DNA from: an uncultured Sphingopyxis sp.
GTDB taxonomy: Bacteria > Pseudomonadota > Alphaproteobacteria > Sphingomonadales > Sphingomonadaceae
DNA: 64,000 nt
Reading direction: 5' to 3'
NCBI GenBank assembly: GCA_964502035.1
Contig: CAZCUW010000004.1
Coordinates: forward strand, 21,171-85,170
Part shown: piece by piece, positions 5,426 to 20,671 of the stretch
Numbering within the stretch: the stretch's first letter is position 1
Layout of the letters: each line of letters begins with the position of its first letter
Program-made: the position numbers and the translations under genes
Notes under the pieces: model-generated
Told to the model about the DNA's origin: nothing
The model's input: only the letters and a program-made list of their open reading frames with translations
Database searches by the model: none

Positions 5426-5480
5426 GTTGCCGCCCATGCCTTGCGGCTGGGGGAGGCGTCAACCCGCTTGAAGGACCGTA

Positions 5481-5537
5481 GCCCTGAGCCTGTCGGAGGG
5501 CGCTTCTCGGATAGGCGCCCTTCGACAGGCTCAGGGC
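5481..5537. repeat. REP-like palindrome (GCCCTGAGCCTGTCG..CGACAGGCTCAGGGC type)
   Basis: GCCCTGAGCCTGTCGGAGGGCGC-n11-GCGCCCTTCGACAGGCTCAGGGC. It sits just downstream of the tpsA stop and upstream of the cysS start. Confidence 0.8.
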
Positions 5538-5559
5538 TGCGGTTTTGTTGCAAAGCGCC

Positions 5560-8500
5560 TTACGGCCCCTCGGTCGGCGTCCACAGATCGTCGTTGCCTG
5601 CGCCGGTTACCGGATCGTCGAGCAAAGGTTCGCCGCTCAGCGGATCGAGGCCGCGCATCGTGATCAGCGGTACCGGCAAGCTCTGGCCGCTGCCGTCTTC
5701 ATCCTCGGCATCGGCCTCTTCCTCGATGACGTCCTGGACCGGGAAGCTGTTTTCCAGACCCACGAACGCGCAGCTTGCGGCACTGGCGATGACGCAGCCG
5801 TTGAAGGTCGAACGCGGGTCAAAGCTGCCCGCCGACGGTGCCGACCCACCGATGGTGAGCAGCGGGATGGTGTCGAGCCCGGTTACCTGGCCGGTTGCGC
5901 CAAGCTGAACCCCGTTGATGACGATCCGTGACGGGCCGTTGGTGACCACGTCGATCCCGCCCGCGCCAAAGGTGAGCCCGCGGCGGCTGGCGAAATCGGT
6001 CCCGGCGCCGCTGTTCTGGACATAGAAGCCGCCGACGACTTCGGCGCGGATACCGCGTGCGAACAGCGATCCTTCGTCGATGACGATCCCGTCGTTCTGC
6101 GCAAGGCGCGCCTCGATCGCGTCAGTGGTCGTCGCGGTGCCAACGTCGCCGATCGCGGCGGTGGTGGCGACGATGATGTCGTCGGACACCATGTTGAGCC
6201 GTCCGGCCGCGTTGGTGCCGTTGACCAGCCGCACCGTGCCCTGGCCCAAAATGACCTCGAGCGCGTCGTCGGCGAACAGGTTGAGCGCATTGGTGTCGGA
6301 CAGGCCGGTCAGCTGGACATTGCCGATCACTCGCATCTTGCCGGGGGTGCGAATGGTCAGCGCGCCATTGGCGCCAAGGTTCGACCCCGCGGCGCCCCCC
6401 GCAAGCGTGAAGCTGTCGACGATGATGTCGGGCGGCGTCGTGCTGCCGACCGAGGTGTCCCGAACCGCCTGGACATCGGGCGCGAAAATTTCGATGCTGG
6501 TGCCGAACAGGCGCGTCAGTTCGCTGGCATCGATATGGAAGCCAGCGCGCGTCCCGGTGCCGCCGACGAAGGTCTGGCTGAACACGTCGTTATTTTCGAT
6601 CGACAGCGTTTCGGTACTGCCCGCGGTGCCGACGCGCGCGCCGCTGGCGATGATGATGTCGTTCGATTCGAGTGCGATATTGCGCGCGGTGAGCACGCCG
6701 TTCACGACAATATCGCCCGTCGATATGATGTCGGCGGCGTTCGCGGCCAGTGCGGAAATGATGATGTCATTGCCGTTCCGCGACGTCAGCGCGGCGCGGC
6801 CCGCGACGACGCTGGAGGTGATCGTCAGCGTCCCCGATCCGTTGGTCACCACCGCGTCGCCGACATCGGCGTCGAGGACGGCAAAGACGATGTCGCCGCC
6901 GGTATCCAGGTCGATGCTGTTGCCGGTCACGGTGACCGGCCCGACCGAAATCAGGCCGTCGGAGGTCACCGCGCCGTTGCTGGCATTGAGCATTGTCGCG
7001 CCGCCCGCCTGAATGTTGGTGGCGTTGACGCCGTTCGTGCCGGTTAGCGTCAACGGACCCGTACCGGTGGTCTGGGCGCGGACGATGTCAATGCGCCCAC
7101 CGGTCAGGGTCAGGTCGCCCCCGGCGCGAACACGGCCGCCGATGATGGCGCCCGCGGTGACGAGCGACAGGTTGCCGCCCGCGTCGAGGGTGTTGATGAA
7201 CGCGCCGCCCGGGCTGGCGAGCGTCGCCAGATCGGCCGCCGCCGCGGTGATCGCTATATTGCGGCCCGCCGTCACGGTGCCTGTGGCGGCGAGGGTGCCG
7301 GTTGCTGTGACCAGCACATCGGTGAAGCTATTGATCCCCGCGAGCGTAGTGTCGCCGCCCTGGGTGCGAATATCGCTGCTGCCGCCTGTTACCCCCTGGC
7401 CCAGCGTCGTCGCGCCGTTGATCGCGAGGGCGCCGGTTGTGGTGACCAGAATATCGTCGGCGGCCGACAGGGTCGAGGCGGCGATGGCGCCGCCCGCGGT
7501 CAGGAAGACGTCGGCGCCATTGGTCGCCGAGACGCCTTCGCCCTGGCTGATCGTGAAGCCGTTGCCCGCCAGATAGCCGAGGGTGGCGGTGTCGGCGCCG
7601 GTTCCAGTCGCGCTGACGCCGGTGGCGGTCAGGGCGCCGACCGCGCGCACCTCGACATCGTCGCCCGCGGTCACGCCGCTGAGCGTGGCGTTGGTCCCGG
7701 CGATGACGAGCATGTCCTCACCCGCGCTGGCGCCGGTCAGCGTCGCCGACCCGCCTGCATTGACCCCGAACATCCGCGCCGCGGCGCTGTTGGTCAGCGC
7801 GGCATCGCCTGCCGCTTCGACAAACACATTGCCCTGGGTCGCGCCGCCGTTGAAATCGACATAGCCGCCATTCGCCGTCGCCGATGCGGTGATGTTGGCG
7901 TTCGAATTCAACCGGACGTCGCCGCCCGCGACAAAGGTGCCGGTCAGGTCGCCATCGGCGAAAATCGAGATAGTCCCCGCCACGTTTGTCTGGTTCACCG
8001 CCACCGGGCCGCCAAGGCCAAAGGCGAACAAGGACGCATCGCCGGTAACGGCGCCAGTCAGCCCAATGCTGTCACCGAAAACGGTAATGTCGCCGCCTGC
8101 CGCGATGTTGGTTCCGGTGATCGCGTTGGCGGCGGACAGGTTGACCGTGCTGCCTGCATCGATTGCAGCAAAGGCGATGCTGTCGCCGTTGATGCTGGTC
8201 GCCTGCCCCGACCGCAGGGTGCCGGTGGTCGTCACCGCACCCGAAGCGGTCAGCGTCAGATTGTCGAAGGCATTGATGTTGCCGCCGCCGATATTGCCCG
8301 CCGAAGCGGTCAGCACGATGTTCGACAAATCGGGCGGCGATGCGTTGATCTGGAAGCCGCTGACGCCCGTGGGGCTGACCGGCAGATAGGTCAGTGTCGC
8401 GGAGTCGGGCCCGGCCCCGGTGGCGGTCAGGCCATTGGCGATGATCCCGCCCGCCGCGATCGCCGTCAGATCATCGCCCGCGGTCAGGTTGGTCAGCGTC

Positions 8501-11500
8501 GCGGTCGTGCCCGCCAGCACCAATATGTCTTCGCCGGCGTTGATGCCGCTGAGCGACACCGATCCGCCGGCGTTGACGCCGAACATGCCCGTCGCACTGC
8601 TGTTGGCGAGGGTGACGTTGCCGACCGCATCGGCGAACACGCTGGCTGCGATCGGCGGCCCGCTGCTCGAACTTTCAAATCCGGTGGCGTTGGCCGACGC
8701 GTTGATGTTGGCGCCCGACCGCAGCCGGACATTGCCCACCGCATTATAGGTGCCGGTGATGTCGCCGGAGGCCGAGACCGCGATATCGTCGCCGATGTTC
8801 GCCAGATTGATCCCCACCGGCCCGGCGCTGCCGATCGCAAACAGCGACGATGCGCCGGTGATCGTGCCGGTGATCGCAATGCGCGTCGCGGTCAGGTTGA
8901 CGTTGCCCCCCGCATCGATCGATCCGCCGTTGACCCCGTCGGCGCCTGCGACATTGCCGCTCGCGGTCAGCGATACCGTCGCGCCGGCGTCGATGTTGTT
9001 GAACAGGATCGACTGGCCAGTGACCTGAACAAAGCCGCCCGCGCTCGAATTGCCCAGATCGACGGCGCCGGGCGAAGTGACGATGATGTTGCCGCCGGTG
9101 ATGATCGAATTGAGCCCGGTGCGGAAACTGGCGGCGCTGGCGATGAAATCATTGACCGCTTCGGCATGTTCGACCGATGCCGCGCCAGCGGCGGTGATCA
9201 GGATGTCATTGGCATTCAGGCGATCGACCCCGATCGCGCCGAGCGTCGAGGTGAGCGCCAGTGTGGCGCCCGCGCCCAGCAGGCTGCCCGGCGCGCCGCT
9301 GATGCTGCCCGCGCTCGCGGTCAGATTGCCGCCCGCCGCGATCGTCGGGGCGATGCCTTCGCGATTGTCGTGGCGGATATCGATCTGGTCGCCCGCATCG
9401 ATGGTCAGGTTGCTGCCGACGCTGACGGTGCCGTTCGACTGGGCATAGGCGCCGAACGAGCTGTCGGTGGTCAGCGTCATGTTGCCGGTGGTCGCGATTG
9501 TGCCGCCGGTGGCGCCAAAAAAGATACCTGCCGGGGCCACGTCGGTGTCGTTGTTGGTCGGCGGTGCGTCACCCAGGGCTTCGGCGGCGAGGCTGGTCAT
9601 CCGGACCGCGCCATCGCCCGAGGTGCGGATTTCTATTCGCCCGGCGAAATTGCCATTGGCGGCAACCGTCGTCACCCCCAGGTTGACCAGCGCGGCCGTC
9701 TCCACCCCTGCCGCTTCGATCAGCGCCAGCCCGCCGGTGGTTTGCAGCACGGCGCCCGCCGCGCCGTTGCCGCTGGTCCCCGTGCCGCCCGCGCCGCCGG
9801 TGCCCGCAATGCCGCCCGCCGTGATGCTGACCGGGCTGCCGCTCGAGGTGATCGTGCCGCCATTGGCAAACAGGCGCACCGTGCCGCCGGTCGCCGCCCC
9901 GCCATCGCCGCCGTCGCCGCCGATGAATCCGGCGCCAAAGCCATTGAACGCGCCTTCGCCGCCGTTCCCGCCGCTGCCGTCGCTGCCGAGCGAAACAAGC
10001 CCGCCGGCATCCGAATCGAGGAAGATGGTGGCGCCGCCGCTGGCCAGAATTTCCAGCGTGCCGCCGCTGCCCGATCCGCCGCTGCCGCCCGCCGCGCCGA
10101 CGGTTTCGGCGCCGAAAAAGGACGATCCGGCGCTGCCGCCATTGCCGCCGGTGCCGCCGGTCTGGAAATTGGCCTGGCTGAGCGTGGCGCGCCCGTCGGC
10201 GCCGGTCGCGTGGATCCGGCCGGTGCCGCCGGTTCCGTTGCCGCCGTCGCCGCCCGCGCCATTGTTGCCGAACGCACCATCGCCGCCGCGCGCCGAGGCA
10301 TCGACATTCACGAACAGCGGATCGGCGCTGAAATCGGTGACGATGATCTGCGCCAGCCCGCCGATCGCGTTGCCGCCGCTGCCGCCGATCAGGCCAAAGC
10401 CGCCATTGCCGCCTTGGGCCGCGGCGGTGCTGGTCACGGTGCCCGTCGCGTTGACCGGCACCGCCAGGTCGAGCGTTGCGGTGCCGCCCTGGCCGTTACC
10501 GCCGCTGCCACCGATGCCGATGCCGGTGACCGATCCCGAACTGCTGGAGGCAAACACATTGCCGCCGGTGCCGCCAAAGCCCCCCGCGCCGGCAATCAGG
10601 TCGCCGGTGTTGAGCGTTCCCGATAGCATTTCGATCGCCGCGGTGCCGCCCTGGCCGTTGCCGCCGAGGCCGCCCGCGTCGGCAATGCCGCCAAAGGCGC
10701 TGAAATTGCCGCCGGCGCCGCCGCGACCTTCGGCATAAGCGGCGACGGCGCCGGTCGCGGTGATCGTCGCCCCGTCGATCACGATCGACGCGCTGCCGCC
10801 GACGCCGGTGCCGCCCGGGCCGCCGGGAATGATGTTAGCCGCATTGTCGTCGCTGCCGTCGGGGCCGCGGCCGCCGATGCCGGTTGCCGACACCGTGACC
10901 GAGCCGCTGTTCAGTGCGCCGCCGCGCAGGTTGATCGTCGCCGTTCCCCCGGTGCCGGTGCCCGCGATGCCGTCGGTCCCGACACCTGCTTCGGCATCGG
11001 CGGCGACCGACAGATCACCAAGCTGCACTGCGCCACCGGTCATCGTGAAGGATGCGGTCCCCGCGGTGCTGCTGCCTGTCGTCGCGTCGATCTGGCCCCC
11101 GGCCAGAACCGCCAGCATGCCGCCGGTCAGCAACTGGCCGCCGCTGACATTCATCGCGGCGTTGCCGCCTGCACCATTGGCGCCGCCCGACGCCAACGTC
11201 AGATTGCCGGTCGCGCCGATGACCTGCCCGGCGCCAAGGTTGAACGTCGCGCTGGCGTCGCCGATGAACAGGCCGTCGCCCTGGACGACGAGACGGCCCA
11301 GATGCGGCGGCGGCACAAAGCTCGACGGCCCGCCCGTCGGCACCTGAAGCAAGGGCTGGCCGAGCAGCGCGCCGCTGGCGCGCGCGACGGTGTTGCTGCG
11401 AAACAAGGTGTCGTTGATCGTGATATTGGCAGCGGTGGCGCTCGCCAGGGTGCCGTCCAGTTCGCCATTGAAAATATTGTAGCCCGCCGACAGGCGCACC

Positions 11501-12498
11501 GCGCCGTCGGCGTCGGTCTGGGCCGATACGGCATCGTCATAACCGACCGACCCCGACACCAGCATCGTGACCGCGTCATTTTTGGGAATGGCGACCATAT
11601 AGATGCGGCTCTGGTCGACATCGCCCTGTTCGTGCGCCGGACCCGTCGTGCTGCCGCTGTGGGTGATGACGTTGCCGCCCTCGGCCCCGACCAGCACATT
11701 GATGTCGAACAGGCCGCTGTTGATGCGGATGTCGGTCTGTTCGGCGGCGACATAGGCCGCCGAGCCATCGACGCGCACGGCGCCCGCTTGGACGATGCGC
11801 GGCGCAACAACCGCGACATAGCTGCTGCCCGGATTGAACGCATTGTCGGCGTTGATCGCCGCACCGTTCGCGATGGTGACCGGCGCGATATTGCCCGACG
11901 CGCCGCGAAAGCGGATTTCGCCTGCCGGACCCAGCAGGCCGCCGGTCGTGATGACGTCGTTGGTGGTCAGCACCAGGCTGCCGACGTTGATCGCGGCGCC
12001 ATTGCCGATCAGGATGCCGCCGGCGTTATAGAACCAGATATGGCCATTTTGCAGCGTCGGCAGGCCTGCGATCGACACGACGCTGTTCACCGTCCCGTTC
12101 AGCGCGATCTGGTCCGCGATCGGGGTGCCCGACGCCGCGATAAAGCGGTTGAGCACGATGTAGTCGACGGTGTTGCCGACAAAATTGAGGGTGTTTCCCG
12201 TCGGCAGAAAATCGACGATGCCGCCGACGGGCGCATTGGACGGCGTCCAGTCGATGATGCTTTGCGGTCCGTTCACATTGACCGTCGACGGGTTCACGCC
12301 GGTACCGGTCGTCGTCCCGGCGGGCAGGGTGGTGATCGTCCCCGACCCCGCCACCTGCGCCAGCGCCGGTCCGCCATAGGCCAGCGCCATCATGCCCGCG
12401 CCGATCGCGCAGCCGGTCAGCAGGCGCCGTTTGCCGTGGTGGTCGGGCGCGGAGGTGGCGGTGGCACGCATGGCGTTGGTCCTCGATACGAAAATCAT
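5560..12498 (-). CDS. two-partner-secretion exoprotein (TpsA), filamentous-haemagglutinin-like, ~2312 aa
   Basis: It has an N-terminal signal peptide (..GMMALAYGGPALAQV). A TPS/haemagglutination-activity-like domain follows (SIIDWTPSN..VDF..YIVLNRF..WFYNAGGILIGNGAAINVGSLVLTT). The remainder is long G/A/T/N/V-rich beta-helix-like repeats. The start is set at MIFVS (ATG at 12498), which overlaps the tpsB stop as TGATG. Confidence 0.85.
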   Translation of the reverse strand: MIFVSRTNAMRATATSAPDHHGKRRLLTGCAIGAGMMALAYGGPALAQVAGSGTITTLPAGTTTGTGVNPSTVNVNGPQSIIDWTPSNAPVGGIVDFLPTGNTLNFVGNTVDYIVLNRFIAASGTPIADQIALNGTVNSVVSIAGLPTLQNGHIWFYNAGGILIGNGAAINVGSLVLTTNDVITTGGLLGPAGEIRFRGASGNIAPVTIANGAAINADNAFNPGSSYVAVVAPRIVQAGAVRVDGSAAYVAAEQTDIRINSGLFDINVLVGAEGGNVITHSGSTTGPAHEQGDVDQSRIYMVAIPKNDAVTMLVSGSVGYDDAVSAQTDADGAVRLSAGYNIFNGELDGTLASATAANITINDTLFRSNTVARASGALLGQPLLQVPTGGPSSFVPPPHLGRLVVQGDGLFIGDASATFNLGAGQVIGATGNLTLASGGANGAGGNAAMNVSGGQLLTGGMLAVLAGGQIDATTGSSTAGTASFTMTGGAVQLGDLSVAADAEAGVGTDGIAGTGTGGTATINLRGGALNSGSVTVSATGIGGRGPDGSDDNAANIIPGGPGGTGVGGSASIVIDGATITATGAVAAYAEGRGGAGGNFSAFGGIADAGGLGGNGQGGTAAIEMLSGTLNTGDLIAGAGGFGGTGGNVFASSSSGSVTGIGIGGSGGNGQGGTATLDLAVPVNATGTVTSTAAAQGGNGGFGLIGGSGGNAIGGLAQIIVTDFSADPLFVNVDASARGGDGAFGNNGAGGDGGNGTGGTGRIHATGADGRATLSQANFQTGGTGGNGGSAGSSFFGAETVGAAGGSGGSGSGGTLEILASGGATIFLDSDAGGLVSLGSDGSGGNGGEGAFNGFGAGFIGGDGGDGGAATGGTVRLFANGGTITSSGSPVSITAGGIAGTGGAGGTGTSGNGAAGAVLQTTGGLALIEAAGVETAALVNLGVTTVAANGNFAGRIEIRTSGDGAVRMTSLAAEALGDAPPTNNDTDVAPAGIFFGATGGTIATTGNMTLTTDSSFGAYAQSNGTVSVGSNLTIDAGDQIDIRHDNREGIAPTIAAGGNLTASAGSISGAPGSLLGAGATLALTSTLGAIGVDRLNANDILITAAGAASVEHAEAVNDFIASAASFRTGLNSIITGGNIIVTSPGAVDLGNSSAGGFVQVTGQSILFNNIDAGATVSLTASGNVAGADGVNGGSIDAGGNVNLTATRIAITGTITGASSLFAIGSAGPVGINLANIGDDIAVSASGDITGTYNAVGNVRLRSGANINASANATGFESSSSGPPIAASVFADAVGNVTLANSSATGMFGVNAGGSVSLSGINAGEDILVLAGTTATLTNLTAGDDLTAIAAGGIIANGLTATGAGPDSATLTYLPVSPTGVSGFQINASPPDLSNIVLTASAGNIGGGNINAFDNLTLTASGAVTTTGTLRSGQATSINGDSIAFAAIDAGSTVNLSAANAITGTNIAAGGDITVFGDSIGLTGAVTGDASLFAFGLGGPVAVNQTNVAGTISIFADGDLTGTFVAGGDVRLNSNANITASATANGGYVDFNGGATQGNVFVEAAGDAALTNSAAARMFGVNAGGSATLTGASAGEDMLVIAGTNATLSGVTAGDDVEVRAVGALTATGVSATGTGADTATLGYLAGNGFTISQGEGVSATNGADVFLTAGGAIAASTLSAADDILVTTTGALAINGATTLGQGVTGGSSDIRTQGGDTTLAGINSFTDVLVTATGTLAATGTVTAGRNIAITAAAADLATLASPGGAFINTLDAGGNLSLVTAGAIIGGRVRAGGDLTLTGGRIDIVRAQTTGTGPLTLTGTNGVNATNIQAGGATMLNASNGAVTSDGLISVGPVTVTGNSIDLDTGGDIVFAVLDADVGDAVVTNGSGTLTITSSVVAGRAALTSRNGNDIIISALAANAADIISTGDIVVNGVLTARNIALESNDIIIASGARVGTAGSTETLSIENNDVFSQTFVGGTGTRAGFHIDASELTRLFGTSIEIFAPDVQAVRDTSVGSTTPPDIIVDSFTLAGGAAGSNLGANGALTIRTPGKMRVIGNVQLTGLSDTNALNLFADDALEVILGQGTVRLVNGTNAAGRLNMVSDDIIVATTAAIGDVGTATTTDAIEARLAQNDGIVIDEGSLFARGIRAEVVGGFYVQNSGAGTDFASRRGLTFGAGGIDVVTNGPSRIVINGVQLGATGQVTGLDTIPLLTIGGSAPSAGSFDPRSTFNGCVIASAASCAFVGLENSFPVQDVIEEEADAEDEDGSGQSLPVPLITMRGLDPLSGEPLLDDPVTGAGNDDLWTPTEGP

Positions 12499-14324
12499 CA
12501 GCGCGCCTTCACGCCGAATTGGGTGGTCAGCGACACCAGCAGTCGCGGGTCGGGCTTTTGGGTCAGGAAGCCGCCGCGGTTCAGCGGCACCGCCATCGTC
12601 ACGTCGAGCCGCGCGACATCGCCATATGCGACGCGCATCCCGCCGCCCGCCGAATAGAGTTTCTGGGGGTTCAGGCCGTCGAACGCGCTGTCCTTGTTCC
12701 ACACCCACGCCGCATCGAAAAAGGCAAAGGGCTGGAGCGCGAACGCTTTGGTATTGGCGGGGACGAACGAGCCGTAGCGCGCCTCGAGTGCGACGCCGAC
12801 GCCGCTGTCGCCGATGATCGTGCCGGGGTCGAAGCCGCGCCCGACGGTAAAATTGCCGCCCGAAAATTCTTCATAGGCGAGCAGCGGGTCGCTCGCCCAT
12901 TGCGCGCGCGGCGCGGCGGACAGGGTGAACAATTTGTGCGGCCGCCATTCGGCGAGCGCGTTGGCGCGCAGCAGGAACGCATCGGGTTTGCCCTCGACGC
13001 GGGTCAGCGGCACCGCGCCGGGCAGGAAACAGGTCGCCCCGGCGGGGCCGCAATCGTCGCTGGCGCCCAGGAAGCTGGCGCCCTGCCGCGCTTCGAGCGA
13101 GGTCGATAGCGCCCAGCGCGGTTCGCTGGGGCTGAACCCCCCGCGCCCCGCCACCGAGCCCGGATCGATCCAGTTGGCGTCGGCGCGCAGGTTGAAGACG
13201 CGCAGGCGGTCGCGGTTGATCGGTACGCCGCCGAGGCCGATGTCCTGATCGATCAGGTCGAGCCCGCCACCGATGGTCAGGCGGCGCACCTGGGTCAGCG
13301 TCAGCGGATAGGACGCGAAAAGGCTGGCGATCTGGGTTTTCGACTTGATCGGAAAGGCGGCAATGTCGGGGCGCGTCCACGCATAGGTATAGCTGGCGCC
13401 AAAGCGCAGCCCTTCGCCGCCGACGCGGAACTCGTGCGCCAGCTGGACGACCTGTTGCTCGTCGAAATCGGGGGTCGAGTAAAAGCTGGCGGTGGTGAGG
13501 TCGCCCATGCCGGTCAGCCCGGCAAAGCGCACGCGCGCAACGCCGCCCCAGCGCCCGACGTCGCGCGAGCCGAAATTCTGCGCGTTGAAGTCGAACAAGA
13601 CCGGGGTGCGCGCCACCAGCACTTCGCCGACGACTTCGCCCGGCGCAGCGCCGGGGCGCAGGGTCAGCCGCGCGTCGAGCCCGGGGATGTCGCGCGCCAG
13701 CAGCAGATAGCGTTCGGCCCGGGCGATGTTGAACACCGGCTGGTCGTCGAGCCGCGACAGATAGCGTTGCAGCAGCGGTTCGTTGGCGCCGGCATCGCCG
13801 CGCACCTCGACCCGCGCCATCCGCGCCGCCAAAATGTCGAACCGCACGACGCCGTCGGCGATCGTTTGCGGGGGCACCCGGACCGCCGCCAGATAGCCTT
13901 TGGCGCGCAGCATCGTCGCGGCGCGGTCGCGAATGTCGCAGACGACCGAAATCGGCAGATCCTGTCCGACCTTGTCCGACCAGCTCGGCGCCAGCACCGC
14001 CGTGTCGATGCCCTCGACGCGCGAAAATTCGACCCCGCGCAGCGTGATGCGGACGGTTGCAAATTCGGGGTTGGCGAGCGGGCAGGGTGCGCGCTCGATG
14101 GCATCGTCGGCCGATACGACCCGCTCATTGGGTGGGGTCACCGGGGCCAGCGTCGGTTGCTGAATTTCCTCACGCGTGGGGATCTGCGGGGTCGCCTGGG
14201 CCAGCGCCGCCGCGGGCAAAGCGGCAGCGATCAACGCCGCCGAACCACACAACCTGTCCCGAAGGGCGGCGCGTTTCGGCCGAACCCGCGCATAAACTCC
14301 CTGAACCCCCGTGATCATCACCAC
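12498..14324 (-). CDS. ShlB/FhaC/HecB-family TpsB outer-membrane transporter
   Basis: The 608-aa protein has a signal peptide (AALIAAALPAAALAQA) and a POTRA-like N-terminal region (VRITLRGVEFSRVEG, VRFDILAARMARVEVRG). The C-terminal half is beta-barrel-like. It lies immediately upstream of, and overlapping, a TPS-domain gene. Confidence 0.85.
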   Translation of the reverse strand: MVMITGVQGVYARVRPKRAALRDRLCGSAALIAAALPAAALAQATPQIPTREEIQQPTLAPVTPPNERVVSADDAIERAPCPLANPEFATVRITLRGVEFSRVEGIDTAVLAPSWSDKVGQDLPISVVCDIRDRAATMLRAKGYLAAVRVPPQTIADGVVRFDILAARMARVEVRGDAGANEPLLQRYLSRLDDQPVFNIARAERYLLLARDIPGLDARLTLRPGAAPGEVVGEVLVARTPVLFDFNAQNFGSRDVGRWGGVARVRFAGLTGMGDLTTASFYSTPDFDEQQVVQLAHEFRVGGEGLRFGASYTYAWTRPDIAAFPIKSKTQIASLFASYPLTLTQVRRLTIGGGLDLIDQDIGLGGVPINRDRLRVFNLRADANWIDPGSVAGRGGFSPSEPRWALSTSLEARQGASFLGASDDCGPAGATCFLPGAVPLTRVEGKPDAFLLRANALAEWRPHKLFTLSAAPRAQWASDPLLAYEEFSGGNFTVGRGFDPGTIIGDSGVGVALEARYGSFVPANTKAFALQPFAFFDAAWVWNKDSAFDGLNPQKLYSAGGGMRVAYGDVARLDVTMAVPLNRGGFLTQKPDPRLLVSLTTQFGVKAR

Positions 14325-14450
14325 CCCTTGTGTACGAACGCAGCCGCGAAATCGCGGTGCGGCAATTCATCAGGCCCTGCCAAACACCGGCAGCGCGAAT
14401 TTTTCGACCCAAGGAAAGGTTCTGCCGACGGATCGGCAGATTTTCTTCTT

Positions 14451-14480
14451 ATTGTTATCAGATGGTCCCGAATGGTTCAA
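14451..14480 (-). promoter_or_regulatory. candidate sigma70-type promoter for tpsB-tpsA
   Basis: On the minus strand the sequence reads TTGAAC-18 nt-AACAAT. It lies in the AT-richer 178-nt spacer between the 252-aa gene and tpsB. This is a by-eye match only. Confidence 0.25.
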
Positions 14481-14502
14481 TATTTCCCCGTTTCGGTTAA
14501 CC

Positions 14503-15261
14503 TTATCCCGCCTCGCCTTCCGACATTGCATCGACCAGGCGATTGAGCTGCGGTATGCAGCCCTTGGCCATCAGCATATCGACCGATCCCTCGATGGTAT
14601 CAGGGGCATTTCCCAGCGGCGTGAAGCGCACCTTGACCGGCGCGGGCAAGCCGCCGCCGGACAGGCGATAGTCGACGCCATATTGGACCGGCAAAGTATC
14701 GGTCGGCCATTTGCGGAAATTGGCGCCGTCGACAATCGCGACGGTCGTTTTTTTGCCGGCGCTTTCGATTTCCAGCGCGGTGTCGCCTTCCATGTTCGGA
14801 CGCCACAGCATCAGCGTTGCCGGATCGGCAACGCAGAAGGTCCCGGCTTCGCGATAGTCGAGCAGCCACAAATTGGGCGCGCGGATGTCGATGGGCGCCG
14901 GGTCGTTCGGACCGCGCGAAAACCCGCCGCGTGACCGCATTGTCGGCCCCTTGGCCAGCATCCGTGTCACCGTGCCGCCCATCGACTGGCTGGCCTGGAT
15001 CGTGCCGCTGGCGCCAAAGGTGCCGGGGCCGGACAGGGTGCGGGTCTTGCCCGCCTGCATCAGCACGACCTTGTCGCCCGCGACCAGGGTCAGCTTGTCG
15101 GCCGATTTCAGCTTGGCGCCGGTCGGATATTTGCTCGCCGACGGTCCGGTCGAGCGGACGACCATCGATTGCGCGGCGGCGGTGCCGACGACGGCGACCG
15201 CCATGACGGCAGCGGCGGCGGCAAGGCTCAGGCGGCGCTTCGGCAGATCAGGAAAGGACAT
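14503..15261 (-). CDS. secreted hypothetical protein (weak FecR-like N-half; C-half of unknown family)
   Basis: The 252-aa protein has a signal peptide (LSLAAAAAVMAVAVVGTAAAQ). Its start overlaps the cyclase stop by 14 nt. The segment GAKLKSADKLTLVAGDKVVLMQAGKTRTLSGPGTF loosely resembles FecR-type beta-sandwich sensors. Confidence 0.6.
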   Translation of the reverse strand: MSFPDLPKRRLSLAAAAAVMAVAVVGTAAAQSMVVRSTGPSASKYPTGAKLKSADKLTLVAGDKVVLMQAGKTRTLSGPGTFGASGTIQASQSMGGTVTRMLAKGPTMRSRGGFSRGPNDPAPIDIRAPNLWLLDYREAGTFCVADPATLMLWRPNMEGDTALEIESAGKKTTVAIVDGANFRKWPTDTLPVQYGVDYRLSGGGLPAPVKVRFTPLGNAPDTIEGSVDMLMAKGCIPQLNRLVDAMSEGEAG

Positions 15262-17335
15262 AGCTTTCTCCTTTTTCGGTATTGTTCAGACGGTCTATCA
15301 GAAACATGATGGCTGGATCCTGACCGAATTCGCGCGCCAGTGCTGTGGCGCCCGTCACATAGGTGCCGGTATCGCCCGCGGCGTGCGCCGCGACAAGCGC
15401 CGCGATGCGGGCGCGCCGTTCTGGGTCAAGGTCGGGGCGCGGCGTAAACACGTCGACCGGCTGAGCGCGGCCACGCAATGTCACGCGCCCCATCGGCATC
15501 AGGTCGTCGCGGCCCGATCGCGCCGCGGCCTCGGCCGAGATCAGCACGCCGGTTTTCAGGCTCTTGTTCGCCGCTTCGAGCCGCGAGGCGGTGTTCATGC
15601 TGTCGCCCAGCGCGGTATATTGGATGCGGCCTTCGCCGCCGAAATTGCCGACGATCGCGTCACCGACGTGCAGCCCGACGCGGGTCATGCCGAGCGGCGG
15701 GACGCCGTCGGCCAGGTCGACGCGGAATTTCTCGCCCGCCTCATACATCGCGAGCGCCGCCGCGGCGGCGCGCGGGCCATCGTCGGGGCGGTGGAGCGGT
15801 GCGCCCCAAAAGGCGACGATGGCATCGCCGACAAATTTGTCGATCGTCCCGCCATGGTCGAGCACGATGTCGGACAAGCGATCGAGATAGGCGTTGAGCA
15901 GACGCGCGACGGTTTCCGGGGTCACCGCATGACTGAGCTTGGTAAAGCCTTCGAGGTCGGTGAAGACGCAGAAGATGTTCCGCCGTTCGCCGTGCAGCGA
16001 CAGCTGGTCGGGATCGCGCATGATCTGCGCCGCGACGTCGGCGGGCAGATATTTGCCGAGCGCCGATTGGGCAAAGGCGCGCTGGCGCGACCCGATGGTG
16101 CGCGCCGCGGTGCCGACCGCCGCATAACCAAACAACCAGCCGATCGCCCAGCCAAAGGTGGGCAGGGTGGTGGTGTCGACGCCGCGGCCTTGCAACCAGA
16201 AAGGGAAGGCGATGAAAAACGCCATCTGCCCCAGGAACGCAAGCGCCACCCATCGGGCGCGCAAGTCGATCAGGCTGGTCAGCCCGCCCGCGAGCACGAT
16301 CAGGACGGCGAGTATCCACAGCACCGGCGCCGACAGCGGGCGCGACCAGCCATTGTCGAGCTGTTGCGCCAGCATATGGGCGTGAACCTCCAGCCCGATC
16401 ATCGTTTCATGCTGGCCGGTGATCGGATCGGTAAAGCGGCTCAATGGTGTGTTGAACTGGTCGTTGTCGATGATGTCGCCGCCGATCAGGACGTAGCGAT
16501 CCTTCACCAGCTCCGAAAAGCCTGCGCGCATATCGGCGTCCATCGGCATGGCAAAGGTGTCGATCGGGATGTTGGCAAAGACCGGTTCTTCCTGTCCCGC
16601 GGCGGCGCGCGCGGGCACGAGGAAGCGGATATTGCCCTGGAAATTGGCGTGCGCCGGGTCGACTGGCGCCATGGCGTTGGACATCAACGGCGGCAAATTT
16701 TTTGGCCGGTCGGGCCAGTTGCGGATCACGCTGTCGTCGTCGGTGCGGAACAGCACACTGGTGGGTTTCGTCTTGTCGGTCGCGACCGCGGCGATGAAGG
16801 CTTCGAGAAATTTCTGCTGTTCGTAAAAGATCGTGTTCGGATTGCTCGCCTGCTCGGCATAGGCGAGCCAGGTCGGCGTCCTCATCGCACGCAGCTGGGT
16901 TTTCAGCACCTCGTCGTCGGGGCGCGGCGAATCAAAGGCAATATCGATGCCGATCGCCTTCGCCCCCATCTGGTCGATATTGCCGAGCGCATTGGCGAGC
17001 AGGGTGCGGTCGAGCGGCGAGCGGATGCGGGTGTTGAACAAGGTTTCGTCATTATAGGTGACCAGGACGATGCGTTTATCCTGTTCGACATGCGGCGCCA
17101 TGAGCGTCGCGCGGGCATCGTACAGCGCGCGCTCGGCGGCATCGATCAGCGGCATCTGCCAGCTGAAGCGCGCGATCAGGACCGCGACGATCAGGAACAG
17201 AATCGTTGCCGCCATCCGCGACGGGCCAAGCTGCATGACCAGCCGGCGTACCTGCTTGCGCAGCGGCACCGCGGGCCGCTGACCGTCCGGCGCGGAGGTT
17301 CCGACCGCGGGCGTGCTGGTGTCGGGGGCGGTCAT
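15248..17335 (-). CDS. CHASE2 sensor domain-containing class III adenylate/guanylate cyclase
   Basis: It has an N-terminal TM helix and a CHASE2-like periplasmic region (RIVLVTYNDETL..SPLDRTLLANALGNIDQMGAKAIGIDIAFDSP). Three TM helices follow. The cyclase catalytic domain carries FTDLEGFT, KFVGDAI and LGDSMNTASRLE. The start is MTAPD (ATG at 17335), with an alternative upstream start at 17398. Confidence 0.85.
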   Translation of the reverse strand: MTAPDTSTPAVGTSAPDGQRPAVPLRKQVRRLVMQLGPSRMAATILFLIVAVLIARFSWQMPLIDAAERALYDARATLMAPHVEQDKRIVLVTYNDETLFNTRIRSPLDRTLLANALGNIDQMGAKAIGIDIAFDSPRPDDEVLKTQLRAMRTPTWLAYAEQASNPNTIFYEQQKFLEAFIAAVATDKTKPTSVLFRTDDDSVIRNWPDRPKNLPPLMSNAMAPVDPAHANFQGNIRFLVPARAAAGQEEPVFANIPIDTFAMPMDADMRAGFSELVKDRYVLIGGDIIDNDQFNTPLSRFTDPITGQHETMIGLEVHAHMLAQQLDNGWSRPLSAPVLWILAVLIVLAGGLTSLIDLRARWVALAFLGQMAFFIAFPFWLQGRGVDTTTLPTFGWAIGWLFGYAAVGTAARTIGSRQRAFAQSALGKYLPADVAAQIMRDPDQLSLHGERRNIFCVFTDLEGFTKLSHAVTPETVARLLNAYLDRLSDIVLDHGGTIDKFVGDAIVAFWGAPLHRPDDGPRAAAAALAMYEAGEKFRVDLADGVPPLGMTRVGLHVGDAIVGNFGGEGRIQYTALGDSMNTASRLEAANKSLKTGVLISAEAAARSGRDDLMPMGRVTLRGRAQPVDVFTPRPDLDPERRARIAALVAAHAAGDTGTYVTGATALAREFGQDPAIMFLIDRLNNTEKGESYVLS

Positions 17336-17339
17336 CGGA

Positions 17340-20300
17340 TCAGCGGGCAGCGCGGCCGGCACCTTCCGGGGCGGGTGTGGTCGGCGCGAGTGCAGCATCG
17401 GCGGTGGCCGCGCCGCTGTGCAGCAGCGGCTGGCCGCCGTCGCCGATGATCGCGAACCCGGCCCAATAATAGGGGTGCGACGTTTGCTGGTCGTCCATCA
17501 GCCGCATTTGCGTTCCCCACATTGCATCGGCGACGCTGGTGCCCTGACCGGCGGCGAACAGTCCACCGATCAGCCGCTTGGTCGCATCGAAATCGTCGGG
17601 GGCGGGCCAGTGGCTGGCGATCACCGAGCGTCCCCCGGCGCCGATGAAGCTACGCACCAGCCCGTCGAGCGCGTTGCCGCCGCCCGACAGCCCGGCTTCG
17701 CGCGTTGCCGCGACCGACGCCGCGCCCGCGGTGTCGCACGCCGACAGGATGACCAGATCAGCGTTGATCTTGAGGTCGAAGATTTCCTGAAAGGTCAAAA
17801 GCCCGTCCGAATCGCCGCCCCCGAACGAGGTGACCAGCGCCGGCCGCGCCGGGCAGGCGGGGCGCGGCGCGGTGACGAGCCCGTGGGTCGCAAAATGAAT
17901 GATGCGATAGTCGTTGAGGTCGGTGCGGTTCTTGACCGCGCTGTCGGTGAACGCCCCGCCGGTGAGCAGCGTCGCGGCGTCGCCGCCCATCGCATTGCGC
18001 GCGGTAACCAGCTCGTCGGCGGAAATCGGCCGCGCCCATTGCGACACGTCCCACTGGCAGTCGCCGTCAACGCTGGCGCCCGCTGCGCCGCGGGTGCCGA
18101 GCGAAGGCAACGTCGTGCCATTGATCGGCAGGTTTTGGCCCAGCCCGAAATATTGATTGGCGGCTTTTGACGGCGGCGCCTGCCGCGCGTTGCGGAAGGC
18201 GAGGGTCGATACCGCGGTGCTGGGCCGCGTCGTGCGCCCGAGCCAGGCGACCTGGCGCATGTCGAACGGATCGGCGTCGGGATCGAGCAGCCGCTGTTCA
18301 TAGGCCGCAAGGCCGGTGTCGGCGGTGACCAGCAGGTTGATCGGCAGCCGCAGCATGGCGCCGTCGGGTTCGAAAATCAGATGCGCGACCGATGGCAGCT
18401 TGGCCGCAACCGGGCCGAACAGCTGGCCATAGAGTTTGTAAGCGGTCGCGGCGTCGAAGGGGTAGGTAACGCGGCGCCCGTTTTCGACGATCGAGATCGT
18501 CGAGCGCAGCGTATCGACCGCGGTGTCGAGCGCCGCGGCGCCGATGTCCGATTTCCACAGCTGGGCGCCGCCCGGCTCGATCAGCATCGCATAGACGGCG
18601 TCGCCGACGACGAGCATCTTCAGATAGGCCTCGTCGGGGCGCAGCACTTGTTGCAGTTCGGCGAGGTCGAGCTTGCCCGGCGCGACAACGCGATATTGCG
18701 GAAACGCCGACAGCCGGGCGATCGATTCGGCCTGCTGGAACGCCAGATTGTCGAGCTGGGTTTTCAAATCGGCGCGCAGCGCGCCCACTTCGGGCGATTC
18801 CGGCAATTGCGCCAGCCGGGCATCCTCGATCCGCGCGCGTTCGATGTCGCGGTTAAGCGTCGTTGCCTGACGAAACAGTCGCGCGCCGTCGTCGCTGCCG
18901 CTCGACAATTCGCGCGCCAGCACCGCCTGGGTGTCGGCGACGCCGGGGCGGACCTGCAACTGGCTGGCGACAAAGAAGTCGCCGACCGCGGCCGGATCGG
19001 TCGCGGCGCGGCTGGCGAGCAGCCGGTAATAGGGCGCCATCATGTTGGCCATGCCGGTCGTCGAGCGCTGCGAATTGGCCAGCGCGGCGACGACCTCGCG
19101 ATAGATGGCCAGCGCTTTGTCGTCCTGGCCATGGCGGGTCAGGAAGGCGGCGTAGCGTGCGCGCGCCGAGGCGAGCGCGTTGGTTTCGGGATATTCGATC
19201 GCGAGCGCGTTCACCGAGTCCAGAAAACGCGCATCGGCGGCGGCGCTGTCGCCCAGCGCCTCTTCGGCAAGGGCGAGTTCGCCCAGCATCTGCGAGCGCA
19301 GCCGCACGATCGAGGTGACACGGCCTTCGCGCACCGCGACCGCATCGGCCAGGCCTTTGAGCTGTGCCGCCTTGGCCGTGGCGCCATTGCCGCGCAGCCG
19401 TTCGACGGTGCCGAGCAGGTGGACCGCCTGGGCATCGATGATCTGGCCGCGTTCGATCGGGGTCAGCCGTTCACGGTCCGACCCTTGCTGGACGGCGCGG
19501 GCGTTGCTGCCGCTGTTCACCCCGGCGACGATCGTCGGGGTCAAGGTGACGCTGGCCCCGTCGACGGTGACCGCGCTGGTCAACGGCGGGATCGCCCGCT
19601 GCAACAGTTCGGCGGCGGCGTCGTAATCGCGCTGGTTCAGCGCATGGATGGCGCGGAAGTTGCGGCGCAGGCGCAGTTGGACGGGGTCGCTGGTCGGCAC
19701 TGCCTCGGCCTCGGCAAACAGCCGTTCGGCCTCACCGAACTCGCCGAGGTTCGAGCGTTGCAGCGCGCGGTTCAGGGTGAATTCGGTCGGATCGATGTCG
19801 GCCGCCGCTTGGTCGCCCTGGGTGCGCCGTGACAGGGTTTCGAAAAACTCGGCCGCCTCGGCATAATCGCCGCTGTGGTTGCGCCGATATCCCTCGGCCA
19901 GCGCCTTGTCGACGTCGATCGCCCCGGCGAGCGTCCGGGCGAAGCCGTCGTTGCCGCCGACCGACGTCGTGGCGACCTTGATCACCCCGGGAACCACCTT
20001 GCGCTGACGGATCGAATCGAGCGCGAGGTTGAGCGCGTCGCCATAGGCGGCGAAACCTTCCACGACATAAGCGGTATCGCCGTCACTCTCGATCCGCGTC
20101 TGCCAGACGACGCTGCTGTCCTTGACCGTGCAAGTGCCGTCGGCGGTGCAGGTGACGGTTCCGGCGCGGCCGCGTTCGATCCGAGCCTTCGCGGCGTCGG
20201 GGCCGGCGCGGAGCATGCGGACGTAGCCGACGGGCTGGCTGGTATCGCGGCACAGGATCACCCAGGCGCGGTCGAACATCCCGTCGATGACAGCGTCGCG

Positions 20301-20462
20301 CACCGTCGCCTGCACCGCGCAGAGCGAGCCTCCCTGATCGCCGATCGAAAAGCTGTCACGAAGCGTGGGGTCGGTGCCCTGCGCCTGCGCCTGCGCCGCT
20401 CCGGGCGCTGCACAGGCGAGCGCCGCCAGAATCGGCAGGCAAAACGGACGTCGAACGGTCAT
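17340..20462 (-). CDS. secreted TPR-like repeat / CHAT (caspase-fold) domain protein
   Basis: It has a signal peptide (MTVRRPFCLPILAALACAAPGAAQAQAQ). The middle is long and helical-repeat-like. The C-terminal CHAT domain has the His motif IIHFATHG (His codon 17883-17885) and the Cys motif LVILSACDT (Cys codon 17736-17738). Confidence 0.8.
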   Translation of the reverse strand: MTVRRPFCLPILAALACAAPGAAQAQAQGTDPTLRDSFSIGDQGGSLCAVQATVRDAVIDGMFDRAWVILCRDTSQPVGYVRMLRAGPDAAKARIERGRAGTVTCTADGTCTVKDSSVVWQTRIESDGDTAYVVEGFAAYGDALNLALDSIRQRKVVPGVIKVATTSVGGNDGFARTLAGAIDVDKALAEGYRRNHSGDYAEAAEFFETLSRRTQGDQAAADIDPTEFTLNRALQRSNLGEFGEAERLFAEAEAVPTSDPVQLRLRRNFRAIHALNQRDYDAAAELLQRAIPPLTSAVTVDGASVTLTPTIVAGVNSGSNARAVQQGSDRERLTPIERGQIIDAQAVHLLGTVERLRGNGATAKAAQLKGLADAVAVREGRVTSIVRLRSQMLGELALAEEALGDSAAADARFLDSVNALAIEYPETNALASARARYAAFLTRHGQDDKALAIYREVVAALANSQRSTTGMANMMAPYYRLLASRAATDPAAVGDFFVASQLQVRPGVADTQAVLARELSSGSDDGARLFRQATTLNRDIERARIEDARLAQLPESPEVGALRADLKTQLDNLAFQQAESIARLSAFPQYRVVAPGKLDLAELQQVLRPDEAYLKMLVVGDAVYAMLIEPGGAQLWKSDIGAAALDTAVDTLRSTISIVENGRRVTYPFDAATAYKLYGQLFGPVAAKLPSVAHLIFEPDGAMLRLPINLLVTADTGLAAYEQRLLDPDADPFDMRQVAWLGRTTRPSTAVSTLAFRNARQAPPSKAANQYFGLGQNLPINGTTLPSLGTRGAAGASVDGDCQWDVSQWARPISADELVTARNAMGGDAATLLTGGAFTDSAVKNRTDLNDYRIIHFATHGLVTAPRPACPARPALVTSFGGGDSDGLLTFQEIFDLKINADLVILSACDTAGAASVAATREAGLSGGGNALDGLVRSFIGAGGRSVIASHWPAPDDFDATKRLIGGLFAAGQGTSVADAMWGTQMRLMDDQQTSHPYYWAGFAIIGDGGQPLLHSGAATADAALAPTTPAPEGAGRAAR

Positions 20463-20671
20463 CACCAATCCCCCAAACACAAACCCAGAGGCGCCCCGCC
20501 GATGATATTCCGGCAAGGCCCAGTCTTCATTGCTGCGGTACGACCCATTCCCTGATCGGAACCCTAACCCCTTCGCCCGAAAAAGGGAAGTGATCAGCGG
20601 CACAGGCCGCTTGCACCCATCGGACGCGCAACCTATCTGCAAGGCGACAGTTTCAAACCCATGAGGATGAT

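Follow-up and report, generated by a model that had tools for sequence, protein, structure and literature searches.

What is a caspase-fold protease doing beside a receptor-type nucleotide cyclase and a pair of two-partner secretion (TPS) genes? Of the secretion routes, two-partner secretion is considered the simplest, with one cargo and one pore, and the question is raised by a locus in a 64-kb stretch of Sphingopyxis DNA (GC 66%), the whole of which is referred to below as the window. Five minus-strand genes form one block in it and encode a TPR-CHAT protease of 1040 amino acids (17340-20462), a CHASE2 class III cyclase of 695 amino acids (15248-17335), a secreted small protein of 252 amino acids that belongs to an unnamed family (14503-15261), a TpsB outer-membrane transporter (12498-14324; about 606 amino acids counted from the ATG at 14318), and a giant TpsA-type exoprotein of 2312 amino acids (5560-12498). 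A preliminary description of this DNA, made from its letters alone, had reported the five genes as one block and suggested that they make up a single functional module. All five open reading frames (ORFs) are indeed present, and strong synteny supports the suggestion: the five genes very probably form one conserved envelope module.

The evidence for this comes from the recurrence of the genes elsewhere. Genome loci anchored on the small protein were nearly all from Sphingopyxis, to which all the closest relatives of the window's 252-residue protein belong, plus one distant Sphingomonadaceae, while wider taxa were reached through contigs encoding homologues, a plasmid collection and a metagenome scan. 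As far as the fetched DNA extends, a CHASE2 and/or CHAT gene lies beside the small-protein gene in 98 of 99 loci, and the remaining locus is truncated, showing only small-tpsB-giant. The order CHAT-cyclase-small-tpsB-giant is complete in 70 of the 99, most of the others being truncated parts of that order, and the loci with the full order include a Sphingomonadaceae genome at only 40-56% identity. The same order is found in Tsuneonella, Novosphingobium, Alterisphingorhabdus and Sphingobium, with different flanking genes in each. Two loci, in Sphingopyxis sp. PET50 (L079, 5628-10465) and L046 (88-2107), contain only partial matches to the CHAT, cyclase and small-protein genes (e.g. residues 11-165 of the small protein and 360-695 of the cyclase), which suggests that the sensor and protease part has decayed there while tpsB was kept.

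Outside this group the same families occur in other arrangements. Niveispirillum (Rhodospirillales) and a metagenome locus (L103) have tpsB-tpsA-CHAT-small-cyclase, and L176 and L177 (Sphingomonas humi) have tpsA-CHAT-small-cyclase-tpsB; in both arrangements TpsA carries a canonical TPS domain. L176 is of a 53% GC type, with relatives of its small protein in metagenome-assembled genomes (MAGs) of Rhodocyclaceae and Burkholderiales. A further locus, L178, has CHAT-small-cyclase-tpsB, and no tpsA is visible there because the locus lies at the start of its contig. The five families are thus found together in no fewer than four different gene orders, in bacteria from several alpha- and betaproteobacterial orders and between unrelated flanks. 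The preliminary description had proposed a synteny survey, with absence from other genomes counting against a module, and the families prove to co-occur in about 100 loci and in these several gene orders. Membership that is kept while gene order is shuffled and the flanks change indicates functional coupling. The 178-nt spacer with its hairpin between the two gene groups could be taken to mean that CHAT-cyclase-small and tpsBA are unrelated operons that became neighbours by chance, but the survey contradicts this, the association having persisted through the different orders, flanks and bacterial lineages, and chance adjacency is extremely improbable.

Within the block, the junctions are as the preliminary description had read them. 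The CHAT stop is followed by TCCG, a gap of 4 nt, and then by the cyclase ATG at 17335; an alternative cyclase ATG at 17398 would overlap the CHAT gene. The cyclase stop overlaps the start of the small-protein gene by 14 nt, read as ATGTCCTTTCCTGA. The AT-richer spacer of 178 nt (14325-14502, minus strand), which also holds the tpsB leader, has a GC content of 52%, compared with 68% for the block, and tpsB and tpsA overlap as TGATG, the tpsB stop and the tpsA start. Two other details had to be amended: four products, and not three, carry Sec-type signal peptides (CHAT protein, small protein, TpsB and TpsA), and, of the domain models proposed for searching, CHAT, CHASE2, Guanylate_cyc, ShlB and POTRA_2 are found, FecR and DUF928 are not, and TPS remains under its cut-off.

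The CHAT protein comprises a signal peptide, an N-terminal domain with four cysteines, a TPR-like helical region whose Pfam match, at 26.4 bits, falls slightly short of the 27.9-bit threshold, and a caspase-fold CHAT domain at residues 673-1008 (Pfam E 4.5e-46, 158 bits, cut-off 24). The domain thus passes the curated threshold for this clan CD peptidase family with its catalytic dyad intact: His860 lies within FATHG (17880-17894) and Cys909 within LSACDTA (17727-17747). Both residues, together with C48, C71, C105 and C111, are invariant across six TPS-linked CHAT proteins with identities down to 29%. The intact dyad and the conserved N-terminal cysteines fit an active protease that folds outside the cytoplasm, as judged from its sequence. 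A sequence search of the PDB with this protein gave no match. In a metagenome scan anchored on CHAT, 9 of 80 loci have the small-protein and CHASE2 genes directly downstream, and 8 of 80 have a giant G/T/N-rich ORF directly upstream. ORFs of about 600 amino acids beside other CHAT genes were considered as hidden TpsB proteins, but turned out to be kinases, peptidases, TPR proteins and the like.

The secretion pair is recognizable to different degrees in its two members. TpsB has a signal-peptide-like N-terminus, a POTRA domain (POTRA_2, E 1.5e-6, 28.4 bits vs 24) and a barrel of the ShlB/FhaC type within the Omp85 superfamily (ShlB, E 2.1e-13, 50.9 bits vs 22.7; Omp85, E 2.7e-6). The giant protein has a signal peptide and an unusual composition (Gly 18.5%, Ala 15%, Thr 11%, Asn-rich, and only 3 Lys in 2312 residues, or 0.1%), and contains no Pfam family at gathering score. 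Its N-terminal region (residues about 43-340; 11479-12372, minus strand) is matched below cut-off by the Pfam TPS model (E 0.006, 17.0 bits vs 33.5) and by TIGR01901 (E 0.0029, 17.5 bits vs 29.1), and also by the TPS domain of EtpA (8cpk, E 0.0011). These three independent weak matches coincide on one region, and a profile of the TpsA N-terminus aligns with canonical TPS domains over 252 columns (hhalign probability 98.5%, E 3.8e-15). On this concordance we accept the giant protein as a TpsA with a divergent TPS domain; it is also, as expected of a TpsA, a large repetitive exoprotein encoded beside its TpsB, with tpsB and tpsA as direct neighbours in 76 of the 99 loci that were tallied on the small protein. 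Between about residues 600 and 1000 there are long stretches of the GGxGG type, and a segment of several hundred residues can be seen by eye to be duplicated within the protein; no tandem repeats were found at the DNA level in tpsA.

TpsA is the fastest-changing member of the module, with identities of 35-93% within the genus against 59-99% for the other four proteins. Despite this hypervariable body, its last 100 or so residues (5563-5862, minus strand) are nearly invariant in 40 loci of the genus. This tail consists of a Cys loop, NGCVIASAASC (5770-5802), an acidic stretch, LITMRGLDPLSGEPLLDDPVT, and a terminal GAGNDDLW (5581-5604), with the consensus LITMRDxDPxxGEPLLDDPVTGAGNDDLW and the core G-x-G-N-x-x-L-W, for which we know of no counterpart. 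TpsA proteins of distant modules (L094, L096, L103, L120, L176 and L177), otherwise unalignable, end in FSGWGNEARW, FSSWGNEALWQ, ISGSGNSSNW, FSASGNSGRW or FSGAGKQF, with the common form phi-S/T-x-x-G-N/K-x-x-x-W/F. A conserved, acidic and probably disordered tail of this kind would be suited to binding by a TPR domain.

Partial versions of the module suggest which of its components belong together. In Sphingomonas parapaucimobilis (L093), tpsB-tpsA-CHAT occur without the small-protein and cyclase genes, and in a metagenome locus (L107) a giant ORF directly precedes CHAT with no cyclase within 10 kb downstream. The TpsA ends in these cyclase-less trios are of another kind, LPN[IV]S..D[YF] or GANNEELL. 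Conversely, Azospirillum ramasamyi has no CHAT gene but encodes, directly upstream of a CHASE2 cyclase, a DUF4384 fusion protein that resembles the small-protein profile over its first 230 residues (E 3.5e-13). The cyclase-less trio and the Azospirillum pair together indicate that the protease pairs with the secretion genes, and the small protein with the CHASE2 sensor. CHAT also directly follows tpsA in most versions outside Sphingomonadales, and often the tpsA stop and the CHAT start overlap or nearly abut. This gene order, the existence of the trio and the conserved TpsA tail give indirect support to a link between CHAT and TpsA.

Two side observations concern these loci. Type VI secretion genes lie within about 2 kb downstream of both cyclase-less versions: tssK/L/M and tagF with PP2C and kinase genes in L093 (16054-23491), and in L107 a VipB sheath gene that follows CHAT (9765-11405). 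DUF4384 recurs beside CHASE2 cyclases or CHAT proteases in otherwise unrelated loci (L085, 9829-13872; L110, 3082-4887; L128, 5177-7009), its fusion partners being the small-protein-like domain, CsgG with a peptidoglycan-binding domain, a Ser/Thr kinase and a papain-like peptidase.

The small protein belongs to a family of 610 representative clusters at 50% identity, in the alignment of which Cys143, Cys235, W132 and R116 are invariant. Its gene is a constant neighbour of CHASE2 cyclase genes, in one case with no CHAT present. The window's protein and its 226-residue counterpart in Niveispirillum are related with an hhalign probability of 99.6% (E 7.7e-24). An AlphaFold2 model (predicted local distance difference test score 83) shows two beta-rich domains followed by C-terminal helices; no PDB fold matches it at E<=0.001, a PDB sequence search likewise gave nothing significant, and none of 72 family members has a Pfam assignment. 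The preliminary description had hinted at FecR or DUF928 for this protein. That hint did not survive: FecR (PF04773) and DUF928 (PF06051) give no match at E<=10, nor at E<=0.1 in the 72 members, and hhalign against a true FecR domain returns a probability of 0.1%. A weak match to T2SSC/GspC (E 0.009, below cut-off) was set aside as noise, because it is found in only 2 of the 72 members.

The cyclase combines a CHASE2 domain (Pfam E 3.2e-26, 92.9 bits) with a Guanylate_cyc domain (E 7.2e-16, 58.7 bits) in the layout of a CHASE2 receptor: an N-terminal transmembrane helix, the periplasmic CHASE2 domain, further transmembrane helices and a cytoplasmic cyclase domain, the membrane-spanning-like segments lying at about residues 32-65 and 330-382. 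The solved structures nearest to the cyclase domain are the adenylate cyclases CyaB (3r5g) and CyaC (1wc0), and, relative to these, the class III catalytic motifs FTDLEGFT, DKFVGDA and YTALGDSMNTASRLE (N-x-x-x-R) are kept. In this alignment the Lys of DKFVGD and the Thr of YTALGD look like those of CyaC/CyaB-type adenylate cyclases, and we infer cAMP as the product from the sequence. Genes that might encode a receptor for it are found beside the module in two other loci: a Crp/Fnr-family gene just upstream of CHAT on the Sphingobium herbicidovorans plasmid pMSHV (L174, 12102-12740), and a redox protein with a cNMP_binding domain that adjoins the module in L178 (8566-11004); either could be a cyclic-nucleotide receptor. 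No locus other than that of S. herbicidovorans has a Crp gene beside the module.

The cyclase domain also matches the PycC models of PADLOC (best E 6.7e-32), and many CHAT proteins are found in conflict-type neighbourhoods. Together with the very fast evolution of TpsA, and with the caspase-like releasing peptidases known in polymorphic toxins (PMC3482391), this raises the idea of a conflict system, that is, a Pycsar-like defence, a CHAT-based abortive infection system, or a contact-dependent inhibition (CDI) or polymorphic-toxin locus with its own releasing peptidase. Such a reading is very unlikely. The PycC matches are generic, the matching domain sits in a CHASE2 membrane receptor, and no cNMP-binding Pycsar effector is found among the neighbouring genes, so the locus was not assigned to Pycsar; nor does the CHAT protein, which is secreted and separate, match any PADLOC model. 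A CdiBAI assignment was likewise rejected, TpsA having no VENN/PT-VENN motif, DUF637 or toxin domain and no immunity gene following it (the next gene is cysS), and its C-terminus being its most conserved part and not, as in CDI toxins, its most variable. A comprehensive survey of polymorphic toxins gives HINT as the sole processing peptidase of type V toxins (PMC3482391), and the block has housekeeping neighbours and, within a genus, is conserved by vertical descent.

Taken as a whole, the module may be read as a specialized two-partner secretion system equipped with a TPR-CHAT protease and a CHASE2/small-protein sensor pair. TpsB would export the giant, fast-diversifying beta-helical TpsA with its N-terminus first, while the C-terminal tail would stay in the periplasm. 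There the TPR part of the protease would bind the tail and the CHAT domain would cut it, a cleavage that would mature or release the fibre, or serve as a regulated cut. The small protein and CHASE2 would register this event in the periplasm, or else the condition of the fibre, and translate it into cAMP in the cytoplasm. We lean towards this chain tentatively, with rather less than even confidence in it as a whole; the periplasmic location, the substrate of the protease and what the cyclase senses are points that we infer. It may also be that the module senses surfaces by regulated proteolysis: TpsA would act as an antenna that engages a surface or another cell, TPR-CHAT would then cut the periplasmic tail, and the released peptide, or the freed small protein, would be the CHASE2 ligand that raises cAMP. 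Signalling by DegS/RseA or FecA/FecR would be the parallel, except that here the protease would have a caspase fold and the output would be a cyclic nucleotide. The structured tpsB leader could possibly close a feedback loop; we consider this more specific version improbable.

Several observations weigh against the specialized-secretion reading. About 60 of the 80 metagenome CHAT homologues lie in unrelated contexts (kinases, caspases, TPR proteins etc.); module neighbours occur only beside the closest CHAT relatives in that scan, which makes the association specific to one CHAT clade. The comparison of tail motifs covered TpsA proteins that are encoded with CHAT or the cyclase. A search of the window with E. 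coli CRP found no cNMP receptor gene. In a Burkholderiales MAG (L175, 6963-14494) the genes run CHAT-small-cyclase-tpsB, and no giant ORF turns up within 10 kb of them in either direction, so adjacency of tpsA is perhaps not obligatory; the tpsA gene may be at another site in that genome, or else the other four can function without TpsA. Finally, since a structured spacer separates them in Sphingomonadales, CHAT-cyclase-small and tpsBA may be two transcription units.

That spacer deserves a closer look. Alignments of 23 and 43 Sphingopyxis-type loci show conserved boxes (ATTG, TCTG-TA and TTCCTTGGGTCG) with variable hairpins between them, and block-wise conservation extends across about 70 loci. 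The leader has a minimum free energy of -58 kcal/mol (z -4.3), and its invariant TTCCTTGG box is able to pair with the tpsB Shine-Dalgarno sequence CAAGGGG, a helix that is predicted by RNAalifold; the pairing is available in 41 of 69 homologous leaders. RNAalifold returned this invariant helix only, with no covariation, and no Rfam family was found in the leader or elsewhere in the window. On the strength of these predictions, the leader may be a translational control element for tpsBA.

A conserved leader with a possible occlusion of the Shine-Dalgarno sequence, placed between the two gene groups in Sphingomonadales, would fit a link between them that is regulatory only. CHAT-cyclase-small would then be an envelope sensor whose cAMP controls tpsBA through a Crp/Clr-type regulator or through the tpsB leader, and the protease would cut the sensor or an incoming signal, not TpsA. 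The CHASE2 cyclases of Sinorhizobium meliloti control envelope genes in this way through the regulator Clr (PMC5498481), and the Crp/Fnr gene of S. herbicidovorans and the cNMP_binding protein of L178 are in keeping with it. However, CHAT remains with the TPS genes in the two loci where the cyclase and small protein are absent, and directly follows tpsA in most other versions; no Crp-like gene is present in the window or in the other loci, and the conservation of the TpsA tail would be left to be explained. We regard a purely regulatory link as doubtful, although it deserves to be kept in mind.

The four-gene arrangement of L175 bears on another possibility, namely that signals travel inwards, as in the NsrA-CyaK system of S. 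meliloti. In that organism the perception of an external protein by CHASE2 cyclases depends on NsrA, which is an outer-membrane protein (PMC7529298, PMC13001267). By analogy, the TpsB-type barrel, with or without the fibre, would receive an external protein or peptide, TPR-CHAT would process it in the periplasm and the small protein would present the product to CHASE2, with TpsA as an optional antenna. The requirement for NsrA by the S. meliloti cyclases (PMC7529298) makes such a scheme conceivable, and so does a gene arrangement on a Methylocystis iwaonis plasmid (L086, 10168-15704), in which a gene for a secreted FecR+TPR protein of 1221 amino acids immediately precedes a CHASE2 cyclase gene and abuts it; judged from the order of the genes, this is probably the NsrA-CyaK arrangement of S. 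meliloti. Against it, barrels of the TpsB family are known as exporters of TPS-domain proteins and not as receptors (PMC5422565), almost every locus has tpsA as a neighbour, here with translational coupling to tpsB, and the TpsA tail is conserved. We consider inward sensing through TpsB to be rather unlikely.

The specialized-secretion reading can be set against several described systems. Among CHASE2 receptors, the S. meliloti cyclases CyaD1, CyaD2 and CyaK with NsrA come closest, in that a CHASE2 cyclase depends on a co-encoded envelope partner that includes an outer-membrane barrel and turns an extracytoplasmic protein signal into cAMP (PMC7529298, PMC13001267, PMC5498481). The outer-membrane partner in the present module is instead a TpsB exporter with its TpsA cargo, accompanied by CHAT and a non-FecR small protein; Pfam finds no large NsrA-type protein with FecR and TPR in the block, and there is no Clr-like regulator nearby in the window. 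CHASE2 kinases are also encoded beside a secreted FecR-domain partner, as in the Burkholderia 'BiofilmReg' operon, where the secreted periplasmic partner next to the CHASE2 sensor is a LysM-FecR protein (PMC5192318). The partner found here has neither FecR nor LysM, the output domain is a cyclase and not a kinase, and the pair is coupled to secretion genes and a protease.

Among secretion systems, FhaC/FhaB of Bordetella likewise pairs a POTRA-bearing, Omp85-type TpsB with an adjoining giant beta-helical TpsA that has an N-terminal TPS domain and a C-terminal region that, in the present module too, would plausibly be retained and cut in the periplasm (PMC5422565, PMC4542190). The C-terminal prodomain of FhaB is removed during its secretion (PMC4542190). 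HMW1ABC, with its glycosyltransferase, and BcpAIOB are three-partner variants, TPS loci with dedicated accessory genes (PMC3983070, PMC3415462). The present locus has three such genes, of other kinds (protease, cyclase and an unnamed small protein). It differs from FhaC/FhaB in that the TPS domain of its TpsA is too divergent for curated models, that the pair is permanently accompanied by a CHASE2 cyclase and a new small protein, and that maturation would be the task of a dedicated TPR-CHAT protease of caspase fold encoded in the same locus. The proteases that mature FhaB (SphB1, CtpA and DegP) are, by contrast, serine proteases. Clan CD enzymes that act on C-terminal signals of surface proteins include PorU (type IX secretion), glycosylphosphatidylinositol (GPI) transamidase and legumain. 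The CHAT protein resembles these as an extracytoplasmic caspase-fold cysteine protease that possibly acts on a conserved C-terminal tail, but by analogy only, since CHAT is another family and the secretion route is different.

The block is flanked by housekeeping genes, as in the preliminary description: cysS (3899-5437) lies on one side, and the opposite side has the gene for the zeta subunit, an ATPase inhibitor (formerly DUF1476), and a glutaredoxin gene. The intergenic region upstream of the CHAT gene (20463-20671, minus strand; GC 58%), from which the zeta-subunit gene is transcribed divergently, is presumed to be the promoter region of the block, and a simple scan found no consensus sigma-70 site in it; sites found by simple promoter and terminator scans were not more frequent than in shuffled sequence. 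Between the tpsA stop and cysS, a long inverted repeat (5481-5540, minus strand) is read directly from the sequence as a hairpin of about 23 bp, GCAGCCCTGAGCCTGTCGAAGGGCG ... CGCCCTCCGACAGGCTCAGGGCT, and is likely the transcription end or terminator, or an element resembling repetitive extragenic palindromes (REP).

As regards novelty, each of the large domain families is already known individually, whereas no description seems to exist of the conserved combination of all five, of the small-protein family or of the tail motif of TpsA. In RefSeq the Sphingobium genes are named 'CHAT domain-containing protein', 'CHASE2 domain-containing protein', 'hypothetical protein', 'ShlB/FhaC/HecB family...' and 'hypothetical protein'. 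No paper linking CHAT with CHASE2 or with two-partner secretion was found in the literature, and a review of two-partner secretion mentions neither CHAT nor cyclases.

If a widespread form of two-partner secretion always came with a periplasmic caspase-like protease, a receptor cyclase and a new small protein, the pathway would gain a layer of signalling and processing that is absent from reviews of it. The environmental factors recognized by CHASE2 have been stated to be not known (PMC5192318), and the module offers a testable candidate for what these domains sense; it also gives bacterial CHAT proteases a candidate extracytoplasmic substrate. The module is common in Sphingomonadales, which include environmental degraders and plant-associated bacteria, and occurs in Azospirillaceae and relatives of Burkholderiales as well, a distribution suggesting that its function likely matters for attachment to surfaces or for interactions between cells.

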